Translations under genes and position numbers: made by a program | Assembly (NCBI GenBank): GCA_963713825.1 | Contig: CAVQNG010000003.1 | Location: forward strand, 553,794 to 617,793 | Length of the DNA stretch: 64,000 bases | Direction: 5' to 3' | Origin: an uncultured Acidobacteriota bacterium | GTDB lineage: Bacteria > Acidobacteriota > Thermoanaerobaculia > Multivoradales > JAHEKO01 | Notes under the pieces: generated by a model | Seen by the model: only the letters and a program-made list of their open reading frames with translations | Database searches by the model: none | What the model was told of the DNA's origin: nothing | Part shown: positions 6,798 through 52,291 of the stretch, piece after piece | Layout: every line of letters starts with the position of its first letter | Position numbering within the stretch: position 1 is the first letter of the stretch

Positions 6798-8426
6798 GTG
6801 GACATCGAAGGTAGCAAGGTACTCGTCCTGGGCGGCTATGGCCTGGTGGGGATGGCGGTCTGCCGGGAGTTGTTGGAGCACAAGCCGCGAGAGATCCAGA
6901 TCCACAGCCTGCGGCAGGAAGAATCGGCAGAGGCTCGTGAGCTGCTGACGCCGTTTGCGGAAGGCGTCAAGCTCTCGATCTCGAGTGGCGACATCTTCGG
7001 ACTTGCCGAAGAAGCCTCCAGAATAGAGCGCATCGCGGCTCAGCTGAGCCCCCTTCGCGACTCGGATTGGGGAAGGTTCCTGCTGTACCGGTTGCTGGTC
7101 GATGGCAAGCCGGACATCGTGATCGATTCCGTCAACACCGCGACTGGCATCGCTTACAGGGACGTCTATTCGGCCTCGGCAAAGGTGCTGAAAAGCCTGG
7201 AAGCCGGCAGCTCGCAGTGCGATCAGGTCGAGGATCTGCTCGAAGCCCTCTATGTGCCGCGACTGATCCGCCACATGCAGCTCCTGTATGGAGGCATGAT
7301 CGACGCCGGTACTCGTGCCTATTTCAAGGTGGGGACCAGCGGCACGGGTGGCATGGGCCTCAATGTTCCCTACACCCATTCCGAAGAGAAGCCGAGCCGT
7401 GTTCTGCTCTCCAAGAGCGCCATGGCGGGAGCCCAGTCCATGTTGCTGTTTCTCATGGCCCGCACGCCGGGAGCTCCCATCACCAAGGAGATCAAGCCGG
7501 CGGCCGCTATCGCCTGGAAGAAGATCGACCACGGGCCCATCTACCGTGGACGAAAGCCCATCTACATCATGGAGGCCACCCCCCAGACCCTGGGCGAAAC
7601 CTTCTCAACCAACGATCCGACGGCAGCCAAGGCCACCGAGAGCATTCTCGAGACGGCCTACATCGATACCGGTGAGAACGGCATCTTCAGCGTCGAGGAG
7701 TTCGCGATGCTCACCACGTCTCGACAGATGGAGTTCGTGACGCCCGAAGAGATCGCTCAGTACCTCATCTTCGAGATCGGCGGGGGCAACACGGGGCACG
7801 ACGTCATCAACGCACTGGACAACGCGGTACTGGGTCCCACCTATCGGGCCGGTCTCATGCGCCATTGGGCTCTGGAACGAATGATGGAGTTCGAAGCGCA
7901 GGGCAAAACCAAGAGCGTCGCTTTCGAGATGCTGGGGCCGCCACGCAACACCAAGCTGCTCTTCGAGGCTCACCTCCTCCGAGAGGCGTTCGTCACGATG
8001 ACGGCTGTTCGCGAAGCGACCCCGGACGAAGTTGTCGAGAAGATAGAAACGATGCTTCGGGAAGAGCCGCGGCTTGCCAACGAAGTGGTCTCGGTTGGTA
8101 TTCCCATCCTCTTGTCTTCAGGCGAGATCCTGCGGGGCCAGGAGGTCATCGTGCCAGCCGAGGCGGACCACGAGCCGATCACCCCCGAGAAGCTGGAAGC
8201 CTGGGTGCACGACGGGTGGGTCGACTTGCGGCGCGAGAACTGCGCCAGTTGGATCGATCGGATGCAGCGTATCCACGACGACACGGCGGCCATTCCCAAG
8301 GACGACACCTCGAGTCGCCATTTGCGGAATGTCAGGTTCTGGGACGAGGAGAAGAGGATTCAGCCCGGCAAGATCCTGGGGTGGATTCTCTCAGTCGAGG
8401 AGCACGGCGCCCGCTTCAAGCACTGA
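6798..8426 (+). CDS. Uncharacterised 542-aa protein with N-terminal Rossmann NAD(P)-binding fold
   Basis: GTG start with GAGGAG RBS 7 nt upstream. VLVLGGYGLVG glycine-rich dinucleotide-binding motif. The rest matches no family I recognise. Same strand, 80 nt downstream of pckG. Confidence 0.7.
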   Translation: MDIEGSKVLVLGGYGLVGMAVCRELLEHKPREIQIHSLRQEESAEARELLTPFAEGVKLSISSGDIFGLAEEASRIERIAAQLSPLRDSDWGRFLLYRLLVDGKPDIVIDSVNTATGIAYRDVYSASAKVLKSLEAGSSQCDQVEDLLEALYVPRLIRHMQLLYGGMIDAGTRAYFKVGTSGTGGMGLNVPYTHSEEKPSRVLLSKSAMAGAQSMLLFLMARTPGAPITKEIKPAAAIAWKKIDHGPIYRGRKPIYIMEATPQTLGETFSTNDPTAAKATESILETAYIDTGENGIFSVEEFAMLTTSRQMEFVTPEEIAQYLIFEIGGGNTGHDVINALDNAVLGPTYRAGLMRHWALERMMEFEAQGKTKSVAFEMLGPPRNTKLLFEAHLLREAFVTMTAVREATPDEVVEKIETMLREEPRLANEVVSVGIPILLSSGEILRGQEVIVPAEADHEPITPEKLEAWVHDGWVDLRRENCASWIDRMQRIHDDTAAIPKDDTSSRHLRNVRFWDEEKRIQPGKILGWILSVEEHGARFKH

Positions 8427-8600
8427 TCCCACCCGCCCTCCCGAGGGTTGAGGCGGCCGGGCGTACCTTCCGGCCGATCTTTGAGGGCCTGGGGGTTGAA
8501 GCGGCTGGACTTTGTCCGTCCGGTCTCTGGGGCAGTGGGGCGCAGGTGGTGTTGGGCCCGGCCTCCCCTAAGCCCTTAAGCCCTTACCCCCCTCCCGAAA
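8427..8600. repeat. Composite GC-rich intergenic repeat (family member 1 of >=9)
   Basis: Contains GGTTGAGGCGGCCGG, hairpin CGGCCGGGCGTACCTTCCGGCCG, TGAGGGCCTGGGGGTTGAAGCGG and CCTAAGCCCTTAAGCCCTTACCCCC. The same modules recur at 9820, 14181, 33100, 44391, 52059, 56740, 57840 and 63040. The last codons of the radical SAM gene are encoded by the repeat. Confidence 0.8.
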
Positions 8601-9692
8601 GTCGCTGAGGCGGACGGGTAGCCGGCGTGCACCCCAATCCCCCGGGCTGCCATCGAAGCGTCCCGCACATGGCGTGCCACAGGCGCGGCAACTGCCGTCT
8701 GCCGTCAGTCGCCAATCGTTCAAGACATACCAGTCACGACCGATGAGCCTCTCGCCACACTCGTGGCAATAGGTACTGCCGCCTTCGTGGTCGTGAACGT
8801 TGCCGGTGTAGACATAGCGAACACCGTTGCCCATCGCGATGCGTCGAGCTCCGCTCAGCGTCTGATGCGGCGTCGGCGCGCGGTCCATCATCTTCCAGTC
8901 GGGGTGAAAAGCGGTGAAATGCATCGGCACGTCTCGGCCCAGTTTGTCCACCACCCAGCGCGACATCGCGTCGATCTCTTCGGGTGAGTCGTTTTCGCCT
9001 GGGATCAGCAGCGTGGTGATCTCGAACCAGACATCCGTTTCGTGCTGCAAGTAGACCAGGGTTTCGAGGACAGGCTGTAGGTGTGAGCCGCAGATCTCCC
9101 GATAGAACGATTCGGTGAAGGCCTTGAGGTCGACATTGGCGGCATCCATGTGGCGGTAGAACTCCTCGCGCGGCTCGGCACAGACCTCTCCTGCCGTTAC
9201 CGCCACGGCCTGGATGTCGAGCTCATGACAGGCCTGGGCAACATCGATCGCGTACTCGTGGAAGATGACCGGGTCGTTGTAGGTGAAGGCGACGCTGCGG
9301 CAGCCCAGTTCTCTTGCTGCTCGGGCGATGGTCTCCGGAGCTGCCTGATCGGCCAGGGTGTCGAACTGCCGGGACTTGGAGATGTCCCAGTTCTGGCAGA
9401 AACGGCAGGCCAAGTTGCAGCCCGCCGTTCCGAACGACAGCACCGGGGTGCCCGGAAAGAAGTGGTTCAGGGGCTTCTTCTCGATGGGATCCACACAGAA
9501 GCCACTCGAGCGACCGTAGGTAGTGAGAACCACCTCTCCGTCCAGGCAGCCACGTACGAAGCACAGCCCACGCTGTCCCTCACGGAGCTTGCAGAAACGG
9601 GGGCACAGATCGCACTGCACCCGGCCATCTTCGAGCTCATGCCAATAGCGAGTCGAAACGACGCTGGCGTCACGAGTGATGGGTACGTCCAT
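8568..9692 (-). CDS. Radical SAM enzyme, AmmeMemoRadiSam-system type (PFL-activase-like Cx3Cx2C)
   Basis: N-terminal RYWHELEDGRVQCDLCPRFCKLREGQRGLCFVR and CNLACRFCQNW cluster. C-terminal CHECG...CRACGTPC zinc-ribbon-like motif. Confidence 0.75.
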   Translation of the reverse strand: MDVPITRDASVVSTRYWHELEDGRVQCDLCPRFCKLREGQRGLCFVRGCLDGEVVLTTYGRSSGFCVDPIEKKPLNHFFPGTPVLSFGTAGCNLACRFCQNWDISKSRQFDTLADQAAPETIARAARELGCRSVAFTYNDPVIFHEYAIDVAQACHELDIQAVAVTAGEVCAEPREEFYRHMDAANVDLKAFTESFYREICGSHLQPVLETLVYLQHETDVWFEITTLLIPGENDSPEEIDAMSRWVVDKLGRDVPMHFTAFHPDWKMMDRAPTPHQTLSGARRIAMGNGVRYVYTGNVHDHEGGSTYCHECGERLIGRDWYVLNDWRLTADGSCRACGTPCAGRFDGSPGDWGARRLPVRLSDFREGGKGLRA

Positions 9693-9819
9693 GCCTGAGG
9701 CTTCCTCTCAATGCAACCAACCAAGACTGCACCGAATTCCAGTCAATGACGTACTTTCGGAGGTCCGTTGCGGGGCGTAGGAGCGTGAGGGATGGGCCCC
9801 CCACTGCTCAGAGAATCAG

Positions 9820-9935
9820 CCGCCGGAGTCGGAGGCTGATTCAACCCCCAATGCCCAAGAGCCGGCTGGAGGTACGACGGACGGTCCAACCCCCAAGCCC
9901 CCAAAGAGCGCCCGGCGGTGAGCCGGGCGCCTCCT
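9820..9935. repeat. Composite GC-rich intergenic repeat (family member)
   Basis: CAACCCCCAAGCCCCCAAAGAG followed by CGGCGGTGAGCCGGGCGCCTC. The same pair occurs at 44507-44560 and 56795-56845. Confidence 0.7.
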
Positions 9936-9943
9936 CCCCCCGG

Positions 9944-12900
9944 TCAGGGATTCACGAGCTTCACCCAATTGCGCATTGCACCCAAACTGCAGCCGAACTT
10001 CTCGTGGCCTTTGCCCAGATGCTGCGCCTCGATGATCTGCTCGCAAGAGCAGCCCCCTGTGTCACCCACCGTGAAGAAATCGGTGGGGCCACTCTGGAGC
10101 CGCCTCTGGTTACCACGGCCACCGGGGGCCGTCGTATCGAACACCCCGTCCTCATCCACCAGCGCGTACCGATTGACTCCCAGACGATCCGTCGGTACCG
10201 ACTCCGGAATCACCGTCGCCGGACAGACATCCACGTCATCGGGCACCCCGTCGTTGTCAGCATCGCTGGCCACGAAGAGAACAAGCCCGTCGTGATCGGA
10301 TGAGCGCAGGGGCGTCGTGTCGTCGTTGATCAGATCGACGAAGGCGTCGGCGTTGCCACGACCGAACTCCAGACCAGCCAGGAAGTCGTCCAACCCTTCA
10401 CTCGTCAGCGCATGGTCGAGGGCTTGACCGTTCCCAGTGAAGATGTAGGAGTAACGTTCCGCCTGATCCAGTTTCGCTGTCTGATTCGTCAGATCGGGCT
10501 CCACCAGATCAGCGCATGGGTTCGTGTCGCAGACGAGATTGTCGGCTGGCTCGAAGTCACCCACGATCTGGCCGACTGCGTCGACGTACCCGTCGGTGAA
10601 TTCAAAAGCGTTGTAGTCACCGATCACCACCAGGTGCACTTCAGGGTTCGCCGACTGCAGGGCCTGGACCTTCTCGGCAATGGACTGGGCCTGTTCGTAG
10701 CGCTTCTGCCTTACCCTCTCGCCACCGCTTGGATCATCGATCCCACCCAGGGAACGATTGTGGACCGTCATGACCGCAATGGAGAACGACCCAAACTCGA
10801 GCTCGAAAGCACCCTCGAGTAGCAAAGGTGGACGATCGTGCAGTAGCGAGCCGTCATAACTCAAGATCTCGTCCTCGCCGAGTTGGGTGATCTGGTCAAT
10901 CGTCACTGTGTCACGCACCATGAAGCCGACATCGATGCCGCCAACGTCGTTGCCCTCGATCAGGATCGGCGTGTAGATCACAGACGAATCCTCGAAAGCG
11001 ATGTCCACGGCCAGGTCCTCGAGGACCTCGATTTTCTCCGCCTCCTGGACAGCCAAGACATCGGGGGCATCGAGAACGTCGAGGATGTAGTCGACAAACT
11101 TGGCCTTCCGTCCGAAGTACTCGGCATTGTCGAAGAAACGCAACATGTTCAAGCTGCCCACTGTAAATTCTCCTGCCGCGCGCGCTCTGACCGGGCGCAA
11201 CACATCCGGCACCGGCCCCACCGACATCATCTTGGGTACAACCTTGTATCGACCGAAGGTGAAGTTCAGGGGGCCATAGCCCGAAATCGCCTGGCCGGCG
11301 AATACGGGGTCGGAGATGCCATCCAGGCCATCCGTGTCGACGTCGAAGACTTCGGGGTTTCCATCCCAGACGGGAAGATCTGATAGGCCCGGAAAGATGA
11401 TGCCGGGCTCTCGGAAGGGCCGCGGATTATCGACAACGAGACTGACCTCGCCGAACCGATTCGTCGGCCCTGAAGCGATGCCATCGAAGCTGACCAGCAT
11501 ACCCTCGAATCGCTCGAGATCCGGAACCGGAAACGGCTGGTCCGAAGGTGTCGTCGCATCGAACGGAGTTACTGTAGGCAGGGGTTCGCCGCCCCCCAGG
11601 ATGTCCACAGTTGGCGAGTCCGTGATCTCCGTCAGTTCGAAGTACTCCTGCACCCGCCCAATGACTCGTACGCGGTCTCCAATAGAGACCATTGGTGGGT
11701 CCACGCCCGTGTAGACGTAGATACCGTCCGAGGTATAGGGATCATCATCGCTGTCTGCGTCAGGTGTCTGCATGTAAAAGCTGCGAAAGGCCACTGCTGT
11801 GACCACGTTTTCGGTTGTCTTGACTTCCATGCCCTCATAGGGCGAGTAGAGGCCATCGCCCTGGATCTCCCAGATCTCCACCGTCGGGGGTCCCGGCGGT
11901 GGCTCGACTCCAGAGGTGACCATGAGGTTCTGAAAGGCGATGGCCTCCGAGCCACCATCGGTATTCGCCGTCAGGATCAGGGTGAGCGTTGAGCCGGTGC
12001 CCGTGAGCGGCGCGTAGAACGGGGCCATGTCATTGTTCAGCAGGTCTCCGTTCACCAGCATCGGGTCACTTAGGGTGACGATCGCACCGCCCTCCATCGT
12101 GTAGTCCTGCGAGGCATCCTCGTCGATCGAGCTCTGAAACGCCGTCTGTACCGCGCCACCGTCGATGCTGTAGCTCCAGTTAAAGAAATCATTCGCCGCC
12201 TCGAAGTCCCCCATCGCTCCCATGTCGATCGACAGCCCGAGATCCGACGCACCATAGATGTCGAAGACCCAGGTCGCAACTACGTCACGACCCGAGGTGT
12301 CGCCATTATTCGTGTCGACAATCCCGAAGAACTCGTCCGTATTCCCTGTCTTGATGATGCCGAGCGTATCCCCCGGGAAGGAGCCCGCAGAGTCGTCCAC
12401 CACCGCAAAAGGAATCGACGCCGATACTCCCCGCTGGAACTTGTTGAAACCATCCCCGGCAGAGGTGAACGGAATTGCCGGGTCGTCCGTAAACGACAAC
12501 AGGTTCTGCGACGCCGAGCTCACCATGTCAAAAGCGATGACTGTCGGTGGCGGTGGTGGCCCGACTCCCGCGGTGATGACGAGGTTCTGAAAGGCGATCG
12601 CCTCCGAGCCACCATCGGTGTTCGCCGTCAGGACCAACGTCAGCTGCGAACCGGTTCCCGAGAGAGCCGTGAAAAACGGGGTCAGGTTATTCGTCAGCAA
12701 CACCCCATTCATCAACATCGGATCACTTAGGGTGACGATCGCACCGCCCTCCATGGTGTAGTCCTGCGAGGCATCCTCGTCGATCGAGCTCTGAAACGCC
12801 GTCACTGCCGGACTGCCGTCGATGCTGTAGCTCCAGTTGAAGAAATCATTCGCCGCCTCGAAGTCCCCCATCGCTCCCATGTCGATCGACAGCCCGAGAT

Positions 12901-13936
12901 CCGACGCTCCACTGATATCGAAGACCCAGGTCGCAATTACGTCACGACCCGAGGTGTCGCCATTATTCGTGTCGACAATCCCGAAGAACTCGTCCGTATT
13001 ACCTGTCTTGATAATGCCCAGCGTATCCCCTGGGAAGGAGCCCGCAGAGTCGTCCACCACCGCAAAAGGAATCGACGCCGATACTCCCCGCTGGAACTTG
13101 TTGAAACCATCCCCGGCAGAGGTGAACGGAATCGCCGGGTCGTCCGTGAACGACAACAGGTTCTGCGACGTCGAGCCCACCATGTCGTAGGCAACCGCCA
13201 TCGGCACAGCAGTACTGACGATGAGGTTCTGGAAGGCGATCGCCTCCGAACCACCATCGGTGTTCGCCGTCAGGACCAACGTCAGCTGCGAACCGGTTCC
13301 CGAGAGAGCCGTGAAAAACGGGGTCAGGTTATTCGTCAGCAACACCCCATTCATCAACATCGGATCACTTAGGGTGACGATCGCACCGCCCTCCATGGTG
13401 TAGTCCTGCGAGGCATCCTCGTCGATCGAGCTCTGAAACGCCGTCACTGCCGGACTGCCGTCGATGCTGTAGCTCCAGTTGAAGAAATCATTCGCCGCCT
13501 CGAAGTCCCCCATCGCTCCCATGTCGATCGACAGCCCGAGATCCGACGCTCCACTGATATCGAAGACCCAGGTCGCAATTACGTCACGACCCGAGGTGTC
13601 GCCATTATTCGTGTCGACAATCCCGAAGAACTCGTCCGTATTACCTGTCTTGATAATGCCCAGCGTATCCCCTGGGAAGGAGCCCGCAGAGTCGTCCACC
13701 ACCGCAAAAGGAATCGACGCCGATACTCCCCGCTGGAACTTGTTGAAACCATCCCCGGCAGAGGTGAACGGAATCGCCGGGTCGTCCGTGAACGACAACA
13801 GGTTCTGCGACGTCGAGCCCACCATGTCGTAGGCAACGACCTGAGCCTCCGACGCGGTCGGTAGAGCCAGCAGTAATGCCATCAAGGCCAAGAACAGAGT
13901 GGAAACCGAAACAAACCTCGAGGTCTTTGCGAGCAT
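9944..13936 (-). CDS. Secreted extracellular nuclease, COG2374/ExeM-NucH-like. Order is signal peptide, 3 tandem ~214-aa domains of unknown function, OB-like module, EEP (endonuclease/exonuclease/phosphatase) domain and a Cys-containing C-terminal tail.
   Basis: Start MLAKTSRF... with GGAGGAG RBS. Signal peptide ...ALPTASEA. Three repeats each beginning AYDMVGSTSQNLLSFTDDPAIPF. COG2374-like block FRSFYMQTPDADSDDDPYTSDGIYVYTG...GDRVRVIGRVQEYFELTEI. EEP motifs FTVGSLNMLRFFD and DVLAVQEAE. Confidence 0.85.
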   Translation of the reverse strand: MLAKTSRFVSVSTLFLALMALLLALPTASEAQVVAYDMVGSTSQNLLSFTDDPAIPFTSAGDGFNKFQRGVSASIPFAVVDDSAGSFPGDTLGIIKTGNTDEFFGIVDTNNGDTSGRDVIATWVFDISGASDLGLSIDMGAMGDFEAANDFFNWSYSIDGSPAVTAFQSSIDEDASQDYTMEGGAIVTLSDPMLMNGVLLTNNLTPFFTALSGTGSQLTLVLTANTDGGSEAIAFQNLIVSTAVPMAVAYDMVGSTSQNLLSFTDDPAIPFTSAGDGFNKFQRGVSASIPFAVVDDSAGSFPGDTLGIIKTGNTDEFFGIVDTNNGDTSGRDVIATWVFDISGASDLGLSIDMGAMGDFEAANDFFNWSYSIDGSPAVTAFQSSIDEDASQDYTMEGGAIVTLSDPMLMNGVLLTNNLTPFFTALSGTGSQLTLVLTANTDGGSEAIAFQNLVITAGVGPPPPPTVIAFDMVSSASQNLLSFTDDPAIPFTSAGDGFNKFQRGVSASIPFAVVDDSAGSFPGDTLGIIKTGNTDEFFGIVDTNNGDTSGRDVVATWVFDIYGASDLGLSIDMGAMGDFEAANDFFNWSYSIDGGAVQTAFQSSIDEDASQDYTMEGGAIVTLSDPMLVNGDLLNNDMAPFYAPLTGTGSTLTLILTANTDGGSEAIAFQNLMVTSGVEPPPGPPTVEIWEIQGDGLYSPYEGMEVKTTENVVTAVAFRSFYMQTPDADSDDDPYTSDGIYVYTGVDPPMVSIGDRVRVIGRVQEYFELTEITDSPTVDILGGGEPLPTVTPFDATTPSDQPFPVPDLERFEGMLVSFDGIASGPTNRFGEVSLVVDNPRPFREPGIIFPGLSDLPVWDGNPEVFDVDTDGLDGISDPVFAGQAISGYGPLNFTFGRYKVVPKMMSVGPVPDVLRPVRARAAGEFTVGSLNMLRFFDNAEYFGRKAKFVDYILDVLDAPDVLAVQEAEKIEVLEDLAVDIAFEDSSVIYTPILIEGNDVGGIDVGFMVRDTVTIDQITQLGEDEILSYDGSLLHDRPPLLLEGAFELEFGSFSIAVMTVHNRSLGGIDDPSGGERVRQKRYEQAQSIAEKVQALQSANPEVHLVVIGDYNAFEFTDGYVDAVGQIVGDFEPADNLVCDTNPCADLVEPDLTNQTAKLDQAERYSYIFTGNGQALDHALTSEGLDDFLAGLEFGRGNADAFVDLINDDTTPLRSSDHDGLVLFVASDADNDGVPDDVDVCPATVIPESVPTDRLGVNRYALVDEDGVFDTTAPGGRGNQRRLQSGPTDFFTVGDTGGCSCEQIIEAQHLGKGHEKFGCSLGAMRNWVKLVNP
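11964..13848. repeat. Intragenic tandem triplication with a 642-bp period. Units 12581-13222 and 13223-13864 are ~99% identical; unit 11964-12580 is diverged.
   Basis: Identical antisense ORFs at 12837..13190 and 13479..13832 (offset 642). Direct alignment of 12581-13206 against 13223-13848 shows only a few mismatches. The third copy from ~11964 is about 85% similar. Confidence 0.9.
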
Positions 13937-14180
13937 CACCATTCTCCTCCCAGGCATGCAAATGGATGGATACCAGCCAGAGACACGCCTCCCGTGTACA
14001 TGTCCTCGTACCGGGTGGCCTCCATGCCTGTCTCCCTCCAGACATTGCTCACCTGCGCTGCGGGTGAGCGGATTCCAGGTGTACTACTAACTTAGCCCAC
14101 CCAGCGAAGGAGTCAAGCAGGTATTGACACTTGTCTATGGGTCTTCCTCGCGTCGACACGCCGGCAAGGGAACACTCCCT

Positions 14181-14345
14181 CCCAATCGTCCAGAGGCGTG
14201 GGTCTTGGGGTTGAAGCGTCCGGTCGTCCCACCCGGCCGGTCCTTGAGGGCTTGAGGTTGAAGAGCCCGTCGTCCCTCCGGCCTACCTTTGAGGCAGTGG
14301 GTCTCCCTCCCGTTTTCCTAAGCCCTTAGGCCCCTACGCCCTTAT
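14181..14345. repeat. Composite GC-rich intergenic repeat, same module order as 63075..63252
   Basis: GGTTGAAGCGTCCGGTCGTCCCACCCGGCCGG, TGAGGGCTTGAGGTTGAAG, TTGAGGCAGTGGGTC and CCTAAGCCCTTAGGCCCCTACGCCCTTA. Confidence 0.75.
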
Positions 14346-14364
14346 TGCCTTCAGCGGTGCCAGA

Positions 14365-24098: not shown

Positions 24099-24341
24099 GA
24101 TCCGTCCTCCTATCGAGTGCACTCGAGTGCACGGAATTCGAAGGTACCACAGGCCCCTGGCTCCCACAAGCTCGAAACAGCCTGAAGCAAGCCACGCGAC
24201 CACTGCGTTACGACTATCCTAAACCTCTCATCCTCAAGGAGTTTGGTGGTGTGTTACCTTGACACCGCCAACACGGCCAAGCATACAATAGGCGTCTACG
24301 AAAAAACCGTTTTCGACTTCGAAATTTGCTGGAGGATCCGC

Positions 24342-26192
24342 ATGTCTTCGCAGGAGTCTTTTGACGAACTCGAGCCCAAGATCATGGGCCTCGTAGAAGA
24401 GGCTATCCGAGAGGTCAAAGAGGAGTACCTGCGGCGCCTGCAGGACACTCGAAACGTGATCGATGAACTCCTCGGCGAGGCGGAGGAGGCCATGGAAGCG
24501 GGCGCCGTAGCTGAGGCCGATATCGCCGCTGTCGTCGCACCCGAGCCGGTCGAGCTTCCGGAACCCCCGAAACACTACCTGCCCGACCTGCATACAGCGG
24601 TGACCAATCTGGACCGTTGTCGGACCCAGGACGAGATTCTCTCGAGCCTGGTGGCGAGCGCCGGTTCCTTTGCGTCCCGTGCCGCCCTGTTCCTGACTCG
24701 CGAAGACGGGCTCCAAGGTTGGAGCAGTCACGGTTTTGCAGCGGGAGACGAGGCTTTCGAGTCTCTCATCCTCGAATACGACGAAGGTTCCCCTTGGGGT
24801 CGCCTTTCCGAAGGACGCGGGGTCATCGAACTCGATGCTGACGAATGCACGGAGCTCTGTAGCCGCATCGACAACAGTAGTCCTGTCAATGGCGCCCTCG
24901 TTCCAATCGTTCTCAGAGATCACCTTGCAGTGGCTCTCTACGCCGACCAGGACGAAGAGGACGACACGATCGGTCTCTTTGCACTGCAGCTGCTGGCCTA
25001 TGTAGCAGCCCAGGCGCTGGAGACTCTGCCACTTCGCGAGCGTTCTTCCACCGCGACCCTTCGACTCGCGACTGAAGCGCCGTACGGAGAGCCTGTCCTC
25101 TCCCTGTGGCAGTTCGTCGCTCCGCAGGCGGACGTCTCGATCGTGGAAGAGATCGAGGCGGCAGCGGAACCTGCCATCGAGGAAGAGGCCGAAGATCTCT
25201 ATGCCGCAGAACCGGTCGAGGAGGTCGAGGAAGCCTACGAAGAAGAAGTCGCTGAGGTCGTCGATTTCGACGCAGTCGAGGACGAGGTCGAGGTGACCGA
25301 AGAGGCGCCTGAGGAGACCGCAGAAGCTGTCGCCTTCGAAGAGGTCGAGGAAGCTTACGAGGAAGACGTCGAGGAGGCCGTCGACTTCGAAGAAGCCGCG
25401 GTGGCCGCAGAAGCACCGGAGGTGACCGCAGAGGCTGTCGCCTTCGAAGAGGTCGAGGAAGCTTACGAGGAAGAGGTCGCTGAGGAGGAGGCGGAAGCGG
25501 CTGAAGCCACTGACCTCGAAGAGGCGGAGGAGGCAGAAGCCGAGACGGCCGAGGAAGCGCTCGAAGAAGCGGTGGCCGAAGACGAAGCGGAATTGGCAGA
25601 GGCTGTCGACCTCGAAGAGGCGGAGCAAGCCTACGAAGAAGAGGTCGCTCGAGACGAGGTGGAGATTGCTACCGAAGCCGACCTACAGCCTGCCGAGGAC
25701 ACCGGATTCGAAGTCGAGCCGGCGGCCGAGCAGGAATGGGACACGCCCGCAGAGCACGAAGAAGTGCCTGCCATGGAAACCGCCAGCGATGAGATCGAGG
25801 CGCCACCCATGGAACCTGAGGTCGCAACCGAACCAGCCCCGGCAGTCGCCATCGACGGGGCTGAGATCAGTCCTCCCGAAGACGCTCAGGGACCGGGCTG
25901 GGCCTTCACCACCAACCGATTCAGCGCTGACAATGCCGGTGAGGCTGTGCATGAGGAAGCACGTCGACTGGCCCGCCTGCTAGTGACCGAGATCAAGCTC
26001 TACAACGAAGAGCAGGTGGAAGCTGGAAGGCGCAATCGCAACATCTACGAGGTCCTTCGCGAAGACATCGACCGGTCGCGTCAGATCTATGAAGAGAGAA
26101 TCGACGACACCGTCCGCACTGAAGCCGACTACTTCCACGACGAGTTGGTGAGGATTCTCGCTGCCGGCGAGTCGGAAATCCTGGGCCTGTGA
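24342..26192 (+). CDS. Acidic repeat protein: N-terminal GAF-like domain, ~300-aa Glu/Ala/Val-rich repetitive linker, conserved basic/helical C-terminal domain
   Basis: ATG at 24342 with GGAGGA RBS. GAF-like block (...DEILSSLVASAGSFASRAALFLTREDGLQGWSSHGF...). Repeats (AVAFEEVEEAYEE...) at 25221-25560. C-terminus EEARRLARLLVTEIKLYNEEQVEAGRRNRNIYEVLREDIDRSRQIYEERID. Confidence 0.7.
   Translation: MSSQESFDELEPKIMGLVEEAIREVKEEYLRRLQDTRNVIDELLGEAEEAMEAGAVAEADIAAVVAPEPVELPEPPKHYLPDLHTAVTNLDRCRTQDEILSSLVASAGSFASRAALFLTREDGLQGWSSHGFAAGDEAFESLILEYDEGSPWGRLSEGRGVIELDADECTELCSRIDNSSPVNGALVPIVLRDHLAVALYADQDEEDDTIGLFALQLLAYVAAQALETLPLRERSSTATLRLATEAPYGEPVLSLWQFVAPQADVSIVEEIEAAAEPAIEEEAEDLYAAEPVEEVEEAYEEEVAEVVDFDAVEDEVEVTEEAPEETAEAVAFEEVEEAYEEDVEEAVDFEEAAVAAEAPEVTAEAVAFEEVEEAYEEEVAEEEAEAAEATDLEEAEEAEAETAEEALEEAVAEDEAELAEAVDLEEAEQAYEEEVARDEVEIATEADLQPAEDTGFEVEPAAEQEWDTPAEHEEVPAMETASDEIEAPPMEPEVATEPAPAVAIDGAEISPPEDAQGPGWAFTTNRFSADNAGEAVHEEARRLARLLVTEIKLYNEEQVEAGRRNRNIYEVLREDIDRSRQIYEERIDDTVRTEADYFHDELVRILAAGESEILGL
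25221..25560 (+). repeat. Intragenic tandem repeats of ~108-120 bp (36-40 aa acidic units)
   Basis: GAGGTCGAGGAAGC(T/C)TACGA(G/A)GAAGA recurs at 25221, 25341 and 25449. Confidence 0.8.
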
Positions 26193-31164: not shown

Positions 31165-31829
31165 CAATTCGCCATCCCGAGAGCCTGTCACCCAAGAGCA
31201 CGGCTCTTCTTTCTGAACTGGCAAGTCTCGAGTGGGCCACGGAGACTTATCTGGCAGGCTCGGCAGCCCTCGCTCTCTACTTGGGACATCGTCCCGTTCG
31301 CGACCTCGATCTCATGAGCCCTGTGCTGCGGCTGCGCGCCGTCGACCGGCGCGACATCCTGCAGGACCTGCTGAGTGTGGATCAAGCCTGCCGAGTGGAA
31401 ACGGCTCGCGATGGGTTCCTCTACGCCCGGATGAGCGGAGAAGTCGCCCTCAGGCTCTTCTACTACCCCTACCCACAAGTCGACGCCGTAACCGAGCACC
31501 AGGGACTCACGGTGGCTTCACCCATCGATCTCGGACTCATGAAGCTGGGGGCCATCATCAGTCGCGGCACTTGTCGGGATTTCGTCGACCTTTATCTACT
31601 CTGCCAGAACCTTCCCTTGGCAGAGCTGCTGGAGGCGTCGGTCCACAAATTCGGACATGTGAGGGATTTCCCCATCCAGGCCCTCAAAGGACTCAGTGAC
31701 CTCTCGCAGACGACAGGTGAGCCCATGCCTATCCTGTCCAGGCCTGTTGATTGGGAGGATGTGGTTGCCTGGACGAGAGAGCAAGTCGAGACCCTGGGCC
31801 GCGAACGCATAGGATTGGAACTGCCATGA
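31152..31829 (+). CDS. Nucleotidyltransferase of the AbiEii/AbiGii (DUF1814-like) toxin family
   Basis: N-terminal LAGSAALALYLGHRPVRDLDLM resembles the AbiEii GGTAL...R.S.DLD motif. About 225 aa. Stop overlaps the hutI start (ATGA). Confidence 0.55.
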   Translation: MAPLTIRHPESLSPKSTALLSELASLEWATETYLAGSAALALYLGHRPVRDLDLMSPVLRLRAVDRRDILQDLLSVDQACRVETARDGFLYARMSGEVALRLFYYPYPQVDAVTEHQGLTVASPIDLGLMKLGAIISRGTCRDFVDLYLLCQNLPLAELLEASVHKFGHVRDFPIQALKGLSDLSQTTGEPMPILSRPVDWEDVVAWTREQVETLGRERIGLELP

Positions 31830-33097
31830 GCGAACTGTTGATCACCAACCTGTCCGAAATCGCCACACCGATTGGTAACGAGGCTCTGACCGGAGTCGAT
31901 CAAGGCAAGGTTCGTCGCTTGTCAGGGGTCGAAGTCTTGTGCCGAGACGAAGAGATCGCAGGCGTCGGGACGAGGGACGAGATCGAGCGCCAAATGGGCT
32001 CCCTGGAGGCGGTCGAGCGACTCGATGCCGATGGCGGCACCCTGGTGCCGGGGTTCGTGGACCCGCACACCCACCTGCCCTGGGCGGGCAGTCGCGAGGC
32101 AGAGTTCGCTCAGCGCCTGGCGGGTAAGACCTACATGGAGATCGCCGCCGAGGGCGGGGGAATACTGTCCACCGTGCGCGCCACGCGTGAGGCTTCGGAA
32201 CCGGACCTCGCCGAGAGAGTCCTGGATCGCCTCGACCTGATGCTCACCCATGGCACGACTACCGCCGAGGCCAAGAGTGGCTACGGTCTGACCCTCGACG
32301 ACGAGTTGAAGCAACTGCGGGCAATCCGCCACGCCTCCGAGGAGCATCCGGTCGACCTGATACCGACGCTTCTCGCGGCTCATGAGACTCCGCCCGAGTA
32401 TCGCCAACAGAGGGACCGCTATCTCGACATCGTCTGCCAGGAGATCATCCCCGCCACCTCCGAGGCTGGGCTCGCCCAGTTCTGCGATGTCTTCTGTGAG
32501 GAGGGCGTCTTCACGGCCGAGGAATCCCACCGCGTGCTGACAGCCGGTGCAGAGAATGGCCTGGCCCCGAGACTTCACGCCGACGAGTTTGTCGACTCAG
32601 GCGGCGCCGAGTTGGCGGCCGAGCTCAAGGCCCTGTCGGCCGATCACCTCACCGCAGTCTCTCCGGCCGGCGTCGAGGCGATGGCAGCCACCGGCGTTAC
32701 GGCGGTTCTGCTGCCGGGAACCAGCTTCTTCCTCATGAAGCACAAATACGCACCGGCTCGTAGACTCCTCGAGGCGGGCGTGCCGATTGCCCTGGCCACC
32801 GACTGTAATCCGGGATCCTCCTTCACCGAGTCGGTGCCGATGGTCTTCGTACTGGCGGTTTACGAGTTGGGGCTATCGATCGAAGAGGCCTTGACCGCGG
32901 CGACACTGAATGCCGCCTGCTGCCTGGACCTCGGTGAGCGCATCGGATCGATCGAAGTCGGCAAGCAGGCCGACCTGGTAGTTCTCGCCGCACCGAACCT
33001 GCTGCACCTCGCCTACCACTACGGCATCAACCTGGTGAGCGCCGTCGTCAAGAGCGGCAAAGTCGTGCATCAGGCCAGCAACTACAAGCACCTATAA
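31826..33097 (+). CDS. hutI: Imidazolonepropionase. The track start at 31751 is upstream; the ATG at 31826 is preferred.
   Basis: GFVDPHTHLPWAGSREAEFAQRLAGKTYMEIAAEGGGILSTV and amidohydrolase metal ligands (HADE...DCNPGSS). Confidence 0.9.
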   Translation: MSELLITNLSEIATPIGNEALTGVDQGKVRRLSGVEVLCRDEEIAGVGTRDEIERQMGSLEAVERLDADGGTLVPGFVDPHTHLPWAGSREAEFAQRLAGKTYMEIAAEGGGILSTVRATREASEPDLAERVLDRLDLMLTHGTTTAEAKSGYGLTLDDELKQLRAIRHASEEHPVDLIPTLLAAHETPPEYRQQRDRYLDIVCQEIIPATSEAGLAQFCDVFCEEGVFTAEESHRVLTAGAENGLAPRLHADEFVDSGGAELAAELKALSADHLTAVSPAGVEAMAATGVTAVLLPGTSFFLMKHKYAPARRLLEAGVPIALATDCNPGSSFTESVPMVFVLAVYELGLSIEEALTAATLNAACCLDLGERIGSIEVGKQADLVVLAAPNLLHLAYHYGINLVSAVVKSGKVVHQASNYKHL

Positions 33098-33099: not shown

Positions 33100-33249
33100 A
33101 GGGGGCATAGGGGCGTAGGGGCTTAAGGGCTTAGGGGCGCGGGAGGGGGGGGGGCCACTGCCCTAAAGGTCAGCCGGAGCGAGCGACGGCTGCCTCAACC
33201 CCCAAGCCCTCGAGGATCGGCCGGAGGTACGACCGGCCGCCTCAACTCT
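33100..33249. repeat. Composite GC-rich intergenic repeat (family member) between convergent hutI and the M49-like gene
   Basis: GGCATAGGGGCGTAGGGGCTTAAGGGCTTAGGGG, G11 run, then CTCAACCCCCAAGCCCTCGAGGATCGGCCGGAGGTACGACCGGCCGCCTCAAC. Confidence 0.75.
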
Positions 33250-34923
33250 CTAGGCCTGCGGATAGCTCGGGCGAATGTCCACCGGCACGTCGTCCAGGCG
33301 TCCGATCGCTTCCAGTAGCGGCGCCGATGCCTGGCCGTAGGTCTCGAGGAACTTCGCGGTTCCCTCGTAGTCGCCAGTCGCCTGCAACATCAGCATCTCG
33401 TTCAGCAGGACCTCGATCGCGGCGGGGAACTTCTCCGACACCGCGTGGAATCGCCCTTCGGCATCGACTTCCAGAGCACCCTTTTCCAGCAGATAATTGA
33501 ACTGCGAGACCACGCCTTGCCCGTGCGCCTCGTGGACACCGAAGCGCGCTGCCCGGAACAACCCCGCCACATACGTCGCTTCCAGGGTCTCGCGCAGCTC
33601 CTTCGGCATCACACCCTTGTCGACCAAGGCGAGGATGTTATAGACGCCCATGACGTCGGCCTTGGCCTCCTCCATCGTGGAGTAGAGCTCCTTGAGCTCC
33701 AGTCGAACCTCGGTGTCGCGTCCGTCGAGTTGGATGAGACCCGGCCCCAAGCCGTGGCTCAACTCGTGATGCAGACTCTCGCTGAAGAACGCATCGAAGG
33801 AGACGCGGGACAGATCTTCCGGCGCCAGGACACGCTCGGCGATCGGCATCAGGATCTTGTCGAACTTGGCTCGCAGAATGTTGCGCAGCATCACCTTCTT
33901 CGATCCCTTCGCCTCGCGCACCCGCTCGTCGTTGGGAAGATTGAAGGCCAGGGTCTGGACTCCGGCCTTGGTGTCTCCACCAGCGAACAGCACATCGACG
34001 ACTCGGATCGGGCTTTCCGTGCCGCGGTCCAGGTTCTTGTGCTCCTCCGGAATGGGCAGGTTCATCTCCAACCACGGCAATTCCTGTTTGAAGCCATCAA
34101 GGGCCGCCGACTCCGCGGGCAAAGCCACGGTGACGAAGGCCTCGTAGGCAGCTTTGTAGCCGAAGAGGCTGTCCTCGTAGGTCTCATAGGGACCGATCGT
34201 CACCTCGACGGGCGAGTCCAGATCCATCCAAGCCACGTCACTGTCGTAGTAATCGTCGGTCTCGAAAGCGTCAGCCCGTAGGGATAGAAAGCTCTGAAGT
34301 GAGGCGTTGTCGGTTGCCGCGGCCGCCTCCCGCAGGTTGGCGATCGCCGGCTCCAGCCACTGGTGGTACTCCTGAGCGTAGGGCACTGCGACCAGTCCGC
34401 CGTCCTGCCGGCGAATCACCGTGAACTCAGAGGTAAAGGCCTCTTCATCCTCTGGGTGCTCGGCGAGCCAGGTCTCGAACTCACTCTGCGTCATATCTTC
34501 TGGGTAGTAGCCGGCCCCTGGTGGGTGCGGCTTGGCCCCGATAAAAGGCGCCATCTCTTCCAGGCGGTCCCACGGACCGAAGTTGACGCTGAAGTAGGCG
34601 CGGCCTGCATCCATCTCGGCACCCTGGGCGTCCTCGAGCTCCGCTTGCAGCGCCGGGTTACCCTGCCAAACCTGACGCAGAAAGATTTCGTCCATCGAGC
34701 GGGCCGCCTGGACCAGGATCTCCAGGACTCGAAGCTCGTCCTCGGACAAGCTCGAAACGTCGGCGACCAACTCGGTCGGCTCGAAACGGGCCAGCCTTTC
34801 GGCGACGTTGGCAGCCACCTCCAGGCCCTCTCCGGCTGCAGGACCAGGCCCCTGCTCGGCCTTCGGGGCGCACCCAGCGAGAACCGCGACGATCAAGACT
34901 CCACTGATTAGCCTCATGTTCAT
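33250..34923 (-). CDS. Secreted/lipoprotein zinc metallopeptidase, DPP-III (M49)-like
   Basis: Lipobox LAGCAP. HELSHGLG (HExxH) with downstream EEAKAD. Overall length and layout resemble bacterial DPP3-family hydrolases. Confidence 0.6.
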   Translation of the reverse strand: MNMRLISGVLIVAVLAGCAPKAEQGPGPAAGEGLEVAANVAERLARFEPTELVADVSSLSEDELRVLEILVQAARSMDEIFLRQVWQGNPALQAELEDAQGAEMDAGRAYFSVNFGPWDRLEEMAPFIGAKPHPPGAGYYPEDMTQSEFETWLAEHPEDEEAFTSEFTVIRRQDGGLVAVPYAQEYHQWLEPAIANLREAAAATDNASLQSFLSLRADAFETDDYYDSDVAWMDLDSPVEVTIGPYETYEDSLFGYKAAYEAFVTVALPAESAALDGFKQELPWLEMNLPIPEEHKNLDRGTESPIRVVDVLFAGGDTKAGVQTLAFNLPNDERVREAKGSKKVMLRNILRAKFDKILMPIAERVLAPEDLSRVSFDAFFSESLHHELSHGLGPGLIQLDGRDTEVRLELKELYSTMEEAKADVMGVYNILALVDKGVMPKELRETLEATYVAGLFRAARFGVHEAHGQGVVSQFNYLLEKGALEVDAEGRFHAVSEKFPAAIEVLLNEMLMLQATGDYEGTAKFLETYGQASAPLLEAIGRLDDVPVDIRPSYPQA

Positions 34924-44174: not shown

Positions 44175-44390
44175 ATGAAGACTTGGCTACTCGAGATCCC
44201 GTGGTCACTGCTCATCCTCGCTTGCCTGACCCTCGGCCTGGCACCCTTTGCTCCTCCCCATATCGTGGAGAAGCTGCGCATGCTCTTTCGCGGCACACTG
44301 GTGCGGCCCATCGACTGGCTCGATCTGGTGTTCCACGGAATTCCCTGGCTGCTCCTCATCCTCAAAGCCTGGGCCACCGCCACGAAATAG
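44175..44390 (+). CDS. Small membrane protein (72 aa, two TM)
   Basis: MKTWLLEIPWSLLILACLTLGLAPFAPPH...IPWLLLILKAWATATK. Ends immediately before the octamer microsatellite. Confidence 0.4.
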   Translation: MKTWLLEIPWSLLILACLTLGLAPFAPPHIVEKLRMLFRGTLVRPIDWLDLVFHGIPWLLLILKAWATATK

Positions 44391-44564
44391 AGGACAGGGC
44401 GTAGGGGCGTAGGGGCGTAGGGGCGTAGGGGCGTAGAAGACAATACCCAATAGCTCAAGACCTCAGTGCCCCTCAAGCCCCCAAAGGCAGGCCGTAGGAA
44501 CGCCGGCCTCCTCAACCCCCAAGCCCTCAAAGAACGTCGGGCGGTGAGCCGGACGCCTCAACCC
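44391..44564. repeat. Composite GC-rich intergenic repeat including a (GGGCGTAG)x5 microsatellite (44406..44445)
   Basis: Five perfect tandem octamers, then CCTCAACCCCCAAGCCCTCAAAGAACGTCGGGCGGTGAGCCGGACGCCTCAACCCTCAAGG. Confidence 0.85.
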
Positions 44565-52058: not shown

Positions 52059-52291
52059 TCTGGCACCGGTGGTCGCATTGAGGCAGTGGGGCACTGAAGG
52101 CGTAGGGGCTTAGGGGACAGAAGACTCGTAGGTACAGAAGTACAAGGCCGTGCCCAGGGTTCGGCGTGGGGACCTCCAGGGGGTTCTTGCAGCGGAAGGG
52201 AGGATAGCCCCCTGGGGGCCCCACGGTGAACGCCTCCTTGGAAGAACGGTTTGGGTTGACGCACAAAAGGGCCGCAGAGGCGCCGGTCGAA

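Follow-up and report, generated by a model that had tools for sequence, protein, structure and literature searches.

We analysed a 64,000-nt stretch of DNA from an uncultured bacterium of the acidobacterial class Thermoanaerobaculia (hereinafter the window), in which a family of G/C-rich composite repeats occupies gaps between genes such as those for a radical-SAM enzyme, an amidohydrolase, an M49 peptidase, a P-type ATPase and a glutamine synthetase. The initial annotation had listed nine intergenic loci carrying the same short modules. A covariance model built on the hairpin-plus-linker unit (run with filters off, E<0.03) recovers 16 such units in 8 arrays within the window, every one of them intergenic. 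Hence, eight of the nine loci hold genuine units, whereas the ninth (52059-52230) has only octamers shared with the family, the rest of it being two other repeat elements, B and C. The features, with gene calls at the loci coming from a simple codon-usage caller made for this analysis, are as follows:

8441..8537, + strand: two-unit array (covariance model; hairpins 8454-8476 and 8502-8523), its head 27 nt past the stop of gene 6798..8426 (+), with a C-rich box at 8427-8442
8563..8595, + strand: C-rich octamer tail, about 3-4 copies of the CCCTTAAG type, within which the convergent radical-SAM gene 8568..9692 (-) has its stop codon
9772..9796, - strand: degenerate octamer tail of the 9801-9942 array, G-rich on the + strand and C-rich in the array sense
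9801..9942, - strand: three-unit array (covariance model; hairpins 9909-9929, 9862-9884 and 9816-9839), first hairpin 14 nt past the stop of gene 9944..13957 (-)
14205..14299, + strand: two-unit array (hairpins 14217-14239 and 14264-14284) with C-octamers after it at 14316-14345; an orphan with no credible gene end at its head, where only an unconvincing 27-aa TTG-start ORF was found
33102..33147, + strand: G-rich octamer array, about 5 copies of GGGGCKTA (Tandem Repeats Finder, octamer search), beginning 5 nt past the stop of the amidohydrolase gene 31751..33097 (+) and having the window's top G-quadruplex propensity score, 2.52
33156..33252, - strand: two-unit array (covariance model; hairpins 33218-33239 and 33171-33192), first hairpin 10 nt past the stop of the M49-peptidase gene 33250..34923 (-)
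44397..44438, + strand: five perfect GGGCGTAG octamers (Tandem Repeats Finder, octamer search), beginning 7 nt past the stop of a conserved 71-aa ORF, 44175..44390 (+)
44474..44568, - strand: two-unit array (covariance model; hairpins 44535-44555 and 44489-44509), whose head motif TGAGGGTTGAGG includes the TGA stop of the P-type ATPase gene 44565..46538 (-)
52080..52116, + strand: G-rich octamer-type tract only, GAGGCAGTGGGGCACTGAAGGCGTAGGGGCTTAGGGG, without a hairpin-plus-linker unit
56764..56856, - strand: two-unit array (hairpins 56823-56843 and 56779-56798) with an extra GC hairpin at 56739-56762; a second orphan orientation, its head toward the start of a + gene
57892..57941, - strand: single unit (covariance model; hairpin 57907-57928), 25 nt past the stop of the glutamine-synthetase gene 57954..59687 (-) and followed, in its sense, by G-octamers at 57845-57889 (C-rich on the + strand)
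63091..63184, + strand: two-unit array (hairpins 63100-63122 and 63147-63170), then C-octamers at 63206-63240; it lies 3' of gene 59758..62997 (+), beyond a canonical terminator at 63031-63060

The four modules from which the family was first recognized were searched on both strands of the window, with expectations taken from dinucleotide shuffles. Module 1 (CTCAACCCCCAAGCCCTC, up to 3 mismatches) returned 6 matches against 0.10 expected, Module 2 (CGGCCGG-N8-CCGGCCG) 4 against 0.08, Module 3 3 against 0.00 and Module 4 (octamer pairs) 18 against 0.55. All four are well above chance, which confirms that the repeat family is real. With Tandem Repeats Finder, a period of 8 nt emerges at 8565-8586, 33102-33139 and 44397-44436, and one of 45 nt at 14204-14294.

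These modules had been described as shuffled in order and orientation, a view that did not survive closer inspection. Read along the G-rich strand, their order is fixed: a stop codon, an optional C-rich box, the head motif GGGTTGAGG (the C-rich box is often found 5' of it), the units, and finally 8-nt tandem repeats; their orientation simply tracks the strand of the adjacent gene. Each unit spans 46-48 nt and joins a GC hairpin of 20-24 nt to a linker that reads TCTTTGAGGGCTTGGGGGTTGAGG on the G-rich strand; the latter is 24 nt long, nearly invariant, internally periodic at about 8 nt and better conserved than the hairpins. The hairpins are drawn from about eight recurring types common to several loci and genomes, and are bounded at the foot by GAGG or GAAG before and (A/G)TCTTTG after. 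An array contains 1-3 units in the window and up to 5 elsewhere. Successive units are direct repeats, with linkers no more than 120 nt apart sharing a strand in 25 of 25 cases and being spaced mostly by 46-48 nt, and the tail is made of 8-nt mini-satellites with the sequence GGGGCKTA, its variants or their complements. As first noted, 14181-14546 and 63075-63412 share their module order over about 370 bp: both consist of a two-unit array, octamers and element B, the last being a separate entity with terminal inverted repeats. Elements B, C and R share the same gaps as the arrays. Another palindrome of 52 nt (14455-14506), with GTAG...CTAC ends, is more REPIN-like than the arrays.

The predicted hairpin is supported by compensatory changes in the aligned units: each of the seven stem pairs has changed on both sides, 82-85% of the stem cells are paired as against 18-49% with the partner slid, and none of 500 shuffles reaches the observed score. 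The stem mismatches comprise 18 G-U and 14 A-C cases with no strand asymmetry; given that they bear no RNA-strand signature, the hairpin could equally matter in DNA. A small structured RNA, as suggested in the initial annotation, is possible on the covariation of the hairpin, to which these mismatches add no strand signal. In about 40% of the units, the commonest hairpin type included, two pyrimidines face each other as a mismatch in the third stem pair, and such units fold weakly on their own. The sense fold is stabler than the antisense fold at seven of eight loci, and the sense-fold z-scores, modest as they are, lie between -1.7 and -2.9 in seven of eight. Several predicted folds pair the G-linkers with the C-octamer tail, a pairing only weakly better than in shuffles. 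RNAalifold additionally draws a lower G-U helix around each hairpin, UUGGGGGU with YCUUUGA, on which we do not rely, since runs of G and of pyrimidines can pair in many registers and the same pattern would arise from transitions alone.

With respect to the surrounding genes, our own calls bear out the placement of five loci between convergent genes, and extend to eight of nine the intergenic regions including a gene 3' end, which had been put at seven. The arrays begin 2-35 nt past stop codons in most cases, sometimes supplying the stop themselves, and the median distance from the last linker end to the stop codon is about 46 nt; two of the eight arrays in the window have no adjoining stop codon. 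On its G-rich strand, an array reads in the same sense as the gene that ends there. Array heads are turned toward an incoming stop codon in 56 cases and toward a start codon in 14, and in convergent gaps the head lies nearer than the tail in 31 of 33 arrays (p about 1e-7). The same polarity is replicated in an independent metagenome sample (37 versus 9; 20 of 22 in convergent gaps). Arrays paired on opposite strands are tail to tail in 10 of 10 instances, 121-600 nt apart and one per gene, and such pairs at a single locus speak against an explanation of the polarity by replication strand. Mean GC skew after stops is 0.13 at gene ends with a head or linker motif versus 0.016 at other ends, which rules out G-richness as a general property of all 3' regions. 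The flanking genes are ordinary housekeeping genes. Those that are themselves flanked by arrays encode a radical-SAM enzyme (Pfam-confirmed) and, as assigned by sequence alone, protein kinases and a phosphatase-like protein.

The covariance model yields 115 matches in the window and five related Thermoanaerobaculia/Acidobacteriota MAGs and none in 35 unrelated loci. An 18-mer scan of a genome collection returned 99 stretches, 64 of them in the five MAGs; the others are isolated, nearly all one per genome in unrelated taxa, and about as numerous as chance would give for an 18-mer. As judged from these matches, the family is confined, among the genomes and contigs scanned, to the five MAGs and related metagenome contigs. 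Thus, the initial annotation was right to prefer a dispersed family, and local duplication alone is ruled out by the 64 stretches in related MAGs. It was likewise right that no described family could be assigned: Rfam, whether at the gathering score or with E up to 1, returned two tRNAs and two spurious weak matches, none at the repeat loci, and six diagnostic family strings are absent from the literature searched, which also held nothing relevant on Thermoanaerobaculia repeats.

Comparison of orthologous sites indicates that some arrays are conserved across species and that others have been gained, lost or swapped between unchanged stop codons. The array at 57892 is 100% identical in its ortholog (L072), within a 1,699-nt block spanning gene and array that is 87% identical; the ortholog (L002) of the array at 9801 keeps the hairpin types and their order, with two units conserved and the third absent. 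A hairpin array follows the ATPase gene in four of five genomes, with differing hairpin types. At the other extreme, a 0-nt gap in the window (43339/43340) corresponds, between unchanged stops, to repeats of 191 nt (L022) and 405 nt (L063) in relatives. The window matches two metagenome contigs (Ga0316190_10013136 and Ga0316191_10013037) at 99.1-99.9% identity, and at 33098-33249 the whole cassette is replaced between assembled contigs whose flanks are 99.1-99.7% identical. The inserted cassette starts with AAGAGGCAGTAGGGG and finishes with GGGTGGCGGGAGA, which are not reverse complements of each other, and no duplication was seen at its flanks.

Taking structure, position and distribution together, the family is best read as a composite, non-coding, lineage-specific intergenic repeat, to be likened in kind to BIME and BOX. 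Beyond this, we propose, with a probability of about one half, that the arrays act as a BIME/BOX-like composite repeat in 3' UTRs, where they would probably shape mRNA 3' ends and insulate convergent genes. Under this proposal the arrays would be transcribed as 3' UTRs, and the hairpin stack would act on RNA 3' ends by blocking 3'-to-5' exonucleases, by weakly pausing or terminating RNA polymerase, or both. Sites for Rho-type loading could be provided by the C-rich octamers and by the linkers, which are C-rich in antisense, such that read-through and convergent transcription might stop before the neighbouring gene. Copy number would change by slippage of whole units, and whole cassettes may be moved or exchanged by an insertion or recombination process. 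It must be noted that the absence or replacement of cassettes between unchanged stops argues against this interpretation, as it resembles the behaviour of mobile or recombinogenic DNA rather than that of a conserved regulatory element. A function in 3' UTRs is also opposed by the lack of a U-tract, the modest folds, the weak folding of about 40% of the units, the stem mismatches devoid of an RNA-strand signature, the two arrays in the window that adjoin no stop codon and the canonical terminator 5' of the 63091 array.

The turnover of cassettes leads directly to the notion of the arrays as non-autonomous DNA akin to a REPIN, MITE or minisatellite, purely selfish or neutral and tolerated just past stops with no host benefit; we hold this to be possible but doubtful. 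The elements would then be spread by a transposase or by recombination, and their polarity would reflect either how they insert or the removal by selection of those inserted the other way round. Presence and absence exactly between unchanged stops (0 versus 191 and 405 nt), the full cassette replacement between nearly identical flanks, the differing hairpin types at one orthologous site and the accumulation of elements B, C and R in the same permissive gaps all favour it. So does the recurrent stem mismatch, as single-strand transposases use imperfect palindromes. Furthermore, Croucher et al. read repeat enrichment between convergent genes as tolerance of insertions (PMC3049150). Conversely, tolerance alone leaves unexplained why, between convergent genes, 31 of 33 arrays, and 20 of 22 in the independent sample, are turned the same way relative to the nearer gene, and why one array is 100% identical within an 87% identical 1.7-kb block. 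The units are direct rather than inverted, and neither terminal inverted repeats nor target-site duplications came to light. The REP-associated transposase (RAYT) that the initial annotation had suggested looking for elsewhere in the genome did not turn up either: a crude motif scan of six-frame ORFs of at least 90 aa for Y-x-x-x-N/Q-P together with an HUH motif found none in 513 kb and a further 257 kb, a weak negative in that these ~770 kb of related DNA come from incomplete genomes only. The genes flanked by arrays are, as stated above, ordinary.

At the opposite end lies a stronger version of the 3'-end proposal, which we consider unlikely, namely that the arrays constitute a dedicated lineage-wide transcript-end and insulator system that has largely replaced canonical intrinsic terminators. 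Here, the sense G-rich hairpin stack, possibly with G-quadruplexes, would fix and protect the mRNA 3' end immediately past the stop, and the antisense strand and C-rich octamer tails would provide unstructured C-rich RNA for loading Rho, by which convergent or read-through transcription would be halted. The strict polarity and the tail-to-tail pairs would be functional design, and cassette turnover a by-product.

It is improbable that the units are the lineage's intrinsic (factor-independent) terminators and nothing more. They are GC stem-loops in sense orientation, the first of them 2-35 nt past the stop in most arrays and hence well inside the roughly 100 nt usual for terminators, each followed by a short pyrimidine tract (TCTTTG), and strict canonical terminators are scarce, being found at only 21 of 209 gene ends in our own scan (which defined a U-tract as at least 5 T in 8). 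However, the units lack the U-tract, and a terminator scan of 8-15 kb called none of them; their conserved post-hairpin tail is YCYTTG. Canonical terminators with at least 5 T are present in the window, including the one at 63031-63060 that precedes an array, and 13 gene ends have both an array and a canonical terminator. The conserved 24-nt linker and the octamer tails are likewise left unexplained by such a role.

More improbable still is that the elements act in DNA, either by binding nucleoid or topology proteins or as G-quadruplex, cruciform or R-loop punctuation at gene ends, with (GGGGCGTA)5 as the candidate G-quadruplex former. The higher conservation of the linker than of the hairpins and the stem mismatches without RNA-strand bias are consistent with it, as is the fact that about 11 of the 17 window regions with a G-quadruplex propensity of at least 1.5 lie in the repeat loci, the two top scorers being octamer arrays. 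There is also a precedent in the BIMEs of E. coli, which bind IHF and gyrase. The recruitment of IHF by REPs is also mentioned in one report (PMC3479197). Yet a protein-binding or structural site need not be polar to transcription, and the polarity is strong.

Finally, despite the regular succession of repeat, variable segment and repeat and the covarying hairpin, we give next to no credence to the arrays as independent small-RNA genes or a CRISPR-like array (24-nt repeats, 22-nt spacers), for they match no Rfam family, the scanned 8-15 kb region has no promoter-like sites, and none of 10 array-flanking proteins is Cas-like in a Pfam scan; a CRISPR array in particular is contradicted by "spacers" that are about eight palindromes recurring across loci and genomes rather than unique, and by there being only 1-5 units per array at many loci.

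Interspersed intergenic repeats are known mainly from cultured enterobacteria, pseudomonads, neisseriae, pneumococci and mycobacteria, and the present family adds well-defined repeats from an uncultured acidobacterial class. What is unusual about it is its near-absolute polarity to the upstream gene and the fixed order of its elements on an 8-nt period. Because passive tolerance of insertions hardly accounts for such polarity, the family offers a good test case for repeats acting on mRNA 3' ends. In practical terms, short-read assemblies of these genomes are probably interrupted at the arrays and the elements that accompany them, and the strain-level cassette polymorphisms could serve as typing markers. 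Arrays that supply stop codons also alter protein C-termini.

Among described systems, the REP/BIME elements of enterobacteria resemble the arrays as high-copy, extragenic, imperfect GC-rich palindromes of 20-40 nt that are combined with conserved non-palindromic linker motifs in mosaics concentrated at gene 3' ends. In the broad sense of REP, the units are indeed short imperfect palindromes that are extragenic and present in many dispersed copies, and the assortment of about eight hairpin types with one conserved linker, a head, a C-rich box and octamer tails is a mosaic of the BIME sort. However, the palindromic units of BIMEs alternate in orientation, whereas those of the arrays are all direct with a fixed period of 46-48 nt. 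The arrays further differ in that the linker is their most conserved part, in their strict polarity to the upstream gene, and in their unrelated sequence from another phylum. Thus, the REP/BIME-like label of the initial annotation is apt in kind (non-coding, intergenic, hairpin-based, mosaic) and does not extend to BIME or REPIN proper, given the direct units (25 of 25). The roles proposed for REP/BIME include mRNA 3'-end protection, attenuation and protein binding (PMC3049150; PMC3479197).

A REPIN consists of two inverted REPs with a short spacer forming one long hairpin, and exploits a RAYT gene that is typically REPIN-flanked and usually single-copy (PMC3337134). Like the REPIN-RAYT systems of Pseudomonas and enterobacteria, the arrays are short palindromic elements, vertically inherited, lineage-specific and persistent across species with some turnover; unlike them, they show no inverted doublets within 120 nt and no RAYT-like ORF in the ~770 kb covered by the crude motif scan. 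In RAYT-associated REP classes, the 5' foot of the palindrome carries a conserved tetranucleotide of the GTAG type, in place of which the arrays have GAGG or GAAG.

The BOX elements of Streptococcus pneumoniae, whose boxB module is about 45 nt long, are composites of distinct end modules around a variable number of tandem internal modules, as are the arrays. They comprise boxA, n copies of boxB and boxC, are intergenic and highly base-paired when transcribed, and are over-represented between convergent genes (PMC3049150). The arrays differ in being GC-rich rather than AT-rich, in having a hairpin plus linker as the internal module and an 8-nt minisatellite as the tail, and in their lack of the IS-like terminal inverted repeats and target-site duplications of BOX/MITE elements (PMC3049150). 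BOX elements, for their part, are not defined by a strict polarity next to stop codons. The mycobacterial MIRUs are direct tandem repeats of ~46-100 bp, intergenic and oriented with the neighbouring genes, which vary in copy number between strains and sometimes overlap stop codons; in these respects (direct tandem, intergenic, gene-oriented, stop overlap) they are close to the arrays. MIRUs, though, are found inside operons, where they presumably encode small overlapping ORFs, whereas the arrays are hairpin-centred, lie mainly at transcription-unit ends and have octamer tails. These tails recall the STRRs of heterocystous cyanobacteria, C/G-rich heptamer tandem repeats (e.g., CCCCAGT) in intergenic DNA, but have a period of 8 rather than 7, are coupled to hairpin arrays and are strand-polar to genes. 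With intrinsic terminators the arrays share a GC hairpin in sense orientation soon after the stop, and differ from them by the missing U-tract, by tandem copies with a 24-nt G-rich spacer and by coexistence with canonical ones. The family, which is apparently undescribed, belongs with the REP/BIME/BOX kind of repeat rather than constituting a new kind of system.

The repeats that the initial annotation had described as four modules in varying order and orientation form a lineage-specific composite repeat made up of hairpin arrays in direct orientation, in which the modules follow one fixed order once all copies are read in one orientation. On the G-rich strand this order runs from the gene stop codon through an optional C-rich box and a head to the units and then the octamers:

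Parts of the composite repeat, G-rich strand
Optional C-rich box after the stop codon: CCCACCCGCCC-like
Head, before the units: GGGTTGAGG
Unit, 1–5 per element and 46–48 nt long: a 20–24 nt GC hairpin, then the linker (A/G)TCTTTGAGGGCTTGGGGGTTGAGG
Hairpin type example: CGGCCGG-N8-CCGGCCG
Hairpin type example, equal to the previously named module 3: CGCCCGGCGGTGAGCCGGGCG
Hairpin type example: CGCTCGGCGAAGTCGCCGAGCG
Hairpin type example: CAGCCGGTGCAAAGCACCGGCTG
G-rich octamers after the units: GGGGCAGT, GAGGCAAT, GGGGCKTA, GGGTCCTG
C-rich complements of the octamers, further along, in addition to the G-rich octamers or in their place: CCCCTAAG, CCCCTACG, CCCTTAAG

Among copies, the linker hardly varies and the hairpin falls into about eight recurrent types, the commonest of which has a pyrimidine–pyrimidine mismatch at its third stem pair. 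All 25 linker pairs at most 120 nt apart are on the same strand, with a spacing mostly of 46–48 nt; opposite-strand pairs are found only at spacings of 121–600 nt and, in 10 of 10 cases, tail to tail (octamer end to octamer end).

All four modules are indeed present where they had been reported, at counts far above those expected from dinucleotide shuffles of the window (G+C ~62%): 6 matches to module 1 (0.10 expected), 4 to the CGGCCGG-N8-CCGGCCG hairpin (0.08), 3 to module 3 (0) and 18 octamer pairs (0.55). The same loci were found independently by a repeat search and by Tandem Repeats Finder. A covariance model of the hairpin-plus-linker unit, built from 90 units, recovers 16 units from the window, grouped into 8 arrays and every one intergenic; thus, the nine loci said to carry the same modules reduce to eight with units and a ninth, 52059–52230, with octamers and no unit. 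The arrays are non-coding, and an Rfam search of the window at gathering score or E up to 1 matched only two tRNAs. Despite the copies being paralogous subfamilies, so that changes among them are not independent events, the hairpin stem is clearly maintained: in a MAFFT alignment of units, both partners vary in each of the seven stem pairs, 82% of stem cells are paired versus 18–49% with the partner slid, and none of 500 shuffles reached the observed stem score; a model-fitted alignment has 85% paired. Stem mismatches are balanced (18 G-U versus 14 A-C), and hence do not tell apart sense RNA, antisense RNA and single-stranded DNA as the level of the structure.

Scanning 185,579 species-representative genomes for exact matches to an 18-mer yielded 99 stretches. 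Five MAGs, labelled as Thermoanaerobaculia or Acidobacteriota in their record titles, account for 64 of these (JBATEX01, CAMYLC01, JAUVRX01, JARFQS01 and JAUWSP01); the remainder are isolated, with almost always a single one per genome, belong to unrelated taxa and are about as numerous as expected by chance. Blocks of the five MAGs show synteny with the window at 78–87% identity, and two JGI metagenome contigs match it at 99.1–99.9%. The covariance model gives 115 matches in the window plus the five MAGs and none in 35 unrelated loci. The repeat sequences are undescribed: as the initial annotation held, the family cannot be assigned to a known one, there being no Rfam match and its diagnostic strings not being found in the literature searched.

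The arrays follow stop codons directly, their G-rich strand being the sense strand. With genes called by a codon log-odds method (locus calls being our own) and loci picked by motif presence, which leaves orientation unbiased and inflates density, 75 of 77 arrays are intergenic, and the gene boundary faced by the head is an incoming stop codon in 56 cases and a start codon in 14. The end of the last linker is a median of ~46 nt from the stop, the tail side 64–1,029 nt (mostly <570 nt) from its own, and 31 of 33 arrays in convergent gaps have the head as their nearer end (p ~1e-7). This was replicated in metagenome contigs, leaving out two of the window's own organism (stop versus start, 37 versus 9; convergent gaps, 20 of 22). 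The array-flanking genes of the window code for ordinary enzymes and transporters (Pfam check). In five, the first hairpin lies 9–27 nt past the stop codon; in a sixth the distance is ~100 nt and a canonical terminator intervenes. Two further arrays are orphans. A TGA of the head or linker often doubles as the gene's stop codon. One gap can hold two opposed arrays, each adjoining its own gene; hence, polarity tracks the gene and not the replication fork.

We give a probability of about 0.5 to these arrays being functional 3′ UTR elements. They would belong to transcribed 3′ UTRs and there influence RNA 3′ ends, by obstructing exonucleases, by weakly pausing or terminating transcription, or by both. 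Rho could load at the C-rich octamers and at the antisense linkers, which would insulate convergent genes. Indirect support comes from array polarity; the scarcity of canonical intrinsic terminators by strict criteria (a stem of ≥6 bp and ≥5 T in 8), found at 21 of 209 gene 3′ ends in the window and 64 related loci; sense folds predicted to be more stable than antisense at 7 of 8 loci (sense z-scores −1.7 to −2.9 at 7 of 8); predicted pairing of G-linkers with C-octamer tails; and a high sense-strand propensity of the octamers to form G-quadruplexes.

The main rival, that the arrays are selfish or neutral and tolerated only past stop codons, appears less likely to us; the strict polarity and cross-species conservation count against it. 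The 57892 unit is identical over ~90 nt in the related locus L072, within a 1,699-nt block (gene plus array) of 87% identity, and L002 keeps the hairpin types and order of the 9801–9942 array with one whole unit differing. The rival is favoured by cassette polymorphisms: in contig L136 (2354–2790), the 152-nt cassette 33098–33249 is replaced by ~430 nt of different arrays and element B (described below), between flanking genes 99.1–99.7% identical to those of the window. The difference reflects either cassette polymorphism between strains or misassembly at the repeats; provided that both assemblies are right, the exchange of cassettes far outpaces the accumulation of point mutations. Downstream of a P-type ATPase gene, an array is present in 4 of 5 genomes with different hairpin types. 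The convergent genes 42047..43339 (+) and 43340..44080 (−) abut at their stops with a 0-nt gap (43337–43342), and L022 and L063 have 191 and 405 nt of repeats, respectively, precisely at the junction of the same two protein ends, which are unaltered. The arrays vary in whole-unit number and undergo cassette turnover. As for other candidates, canonical intrinsic terminators are ruled out for the units, which lack a U-tract and have true terminators nearby, and CRISPR is ruled out as the variable segments are recurrent palindromes.

Three further repeats (element B, element C and a 52-nt palindrome) share the array-bearing intergenic regions, and another GC hairpin is also recurrent:

Other repeats in the window
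14356–14548, plus strand: element B
63244–63408, plus strand: element B
51897–52067, minus strand: element B
52158–52226 (~52140–52228 with flanks): element C, a palindrome of ~70–90 nt, GGTTCGGCGTGGGGACCTCCAGGGGG...CCCCCTGGGGGCCCCACGG
14455–14506: 52-nt double palindrome with GTAG...CTAC ends, GTAGGGGAGGGGCTTGCCCCCTCCCACTGGAGCCCTCAAGGGGCTCCCCTAC, nested in element B
14583–14608, minus strand: GC hairpin AAGCGGCCGGCAG(G/A)GGCGCCGGCCGCTT
56739–56762, plus strand: the same GC hairpin

Element B (~170–190 nt, with terminal inverted repeats of ~30 bp, GAGGTTCGTCCGGGTGGTTCGCAGGGGG ... CCCCCTGCGAACCACCCGGACGAACCTC) looks like a MITE; it occurs at ~21 places in the clade sample (outside the window in L006, L009, L054, L056, L073 and L077) and at none in unrelated loci. 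The ~370-bp order reported as shared between 14.2 and 63.1 kb is real, and arises because element B, its right-hand half, is present at both. Element C, whose outer arms are similar to those of element B, recurs at 89–100% identity at many related-MAG loci (~30 places in all) and found no Rfam match. The 52-nt palindrome (~9 places) adjoins the same element B sequence in L008 and L077, with a copy in L082, and is more reminiscent of a classical REPIN than are the arrays. The GC hairpin is also found in L068, L073, L025, L026 and L047, and in other genomes lies within a longer repeat, GGCCACGCACGAGGCTCTCCCCCG...CTTCAAGACC; its copy at 14583–14608 has a T-rich tail on the minus strand and scores as a terminator. 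The clearest canonical terminator of the window is at 63031–63060; inspection by eye also shows terminator-like hairpins, with a T-rich tail, near 22.87 and 28.8 kb.

Among the genes, one G is missing at 57235 relative to the 99.87%-identical metagenome contig L139, yielding two overlapping ORFs (56946..57305 and 57209..57811) that are probably one plus-strand gene, 56946–57811; the cause is a frameshift mutation or, alternatively, an error in sequencing. Gene 9944..13957 (−; 1337-aa ORF) has three long direct repeats at 11889–13515 (spacing 642–657 nt, 80–99% identity over 300 nt), indicating a product with large internal domain repeats. Degenerate 57- and 108-nt tandem repeats rich in GAG/GAA/GTC codons at 25214–25702 in ORF 24243..26192 (+) suggest an acidic, repetitive protein segment.

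REPINs are defined by inverted doublets (PMC3337134), which the arrays do not have, ruling out this class. The arrays are also not demonstrably linked to a RAYT, with no RAYT-like ORF seen in ~770 kb of related DNA. The REP/BIME-like nature first proposed holds in kind, and we group the arrays with the REP/BIME, BOX and MIRU elements. They resemble BIMEs in combining palindromes with conserved linkers, BOX elements in having end modules around a variable number of ~45-nt internal modules and in preferring convergent gaps (PMC3049150), and MIRUs in having direct units co-oriented with genes. From each of BIME, BOX and MIRU they differ in a defining feature: the orientation of the units, the terminal inverted repeats or a position inside operons.
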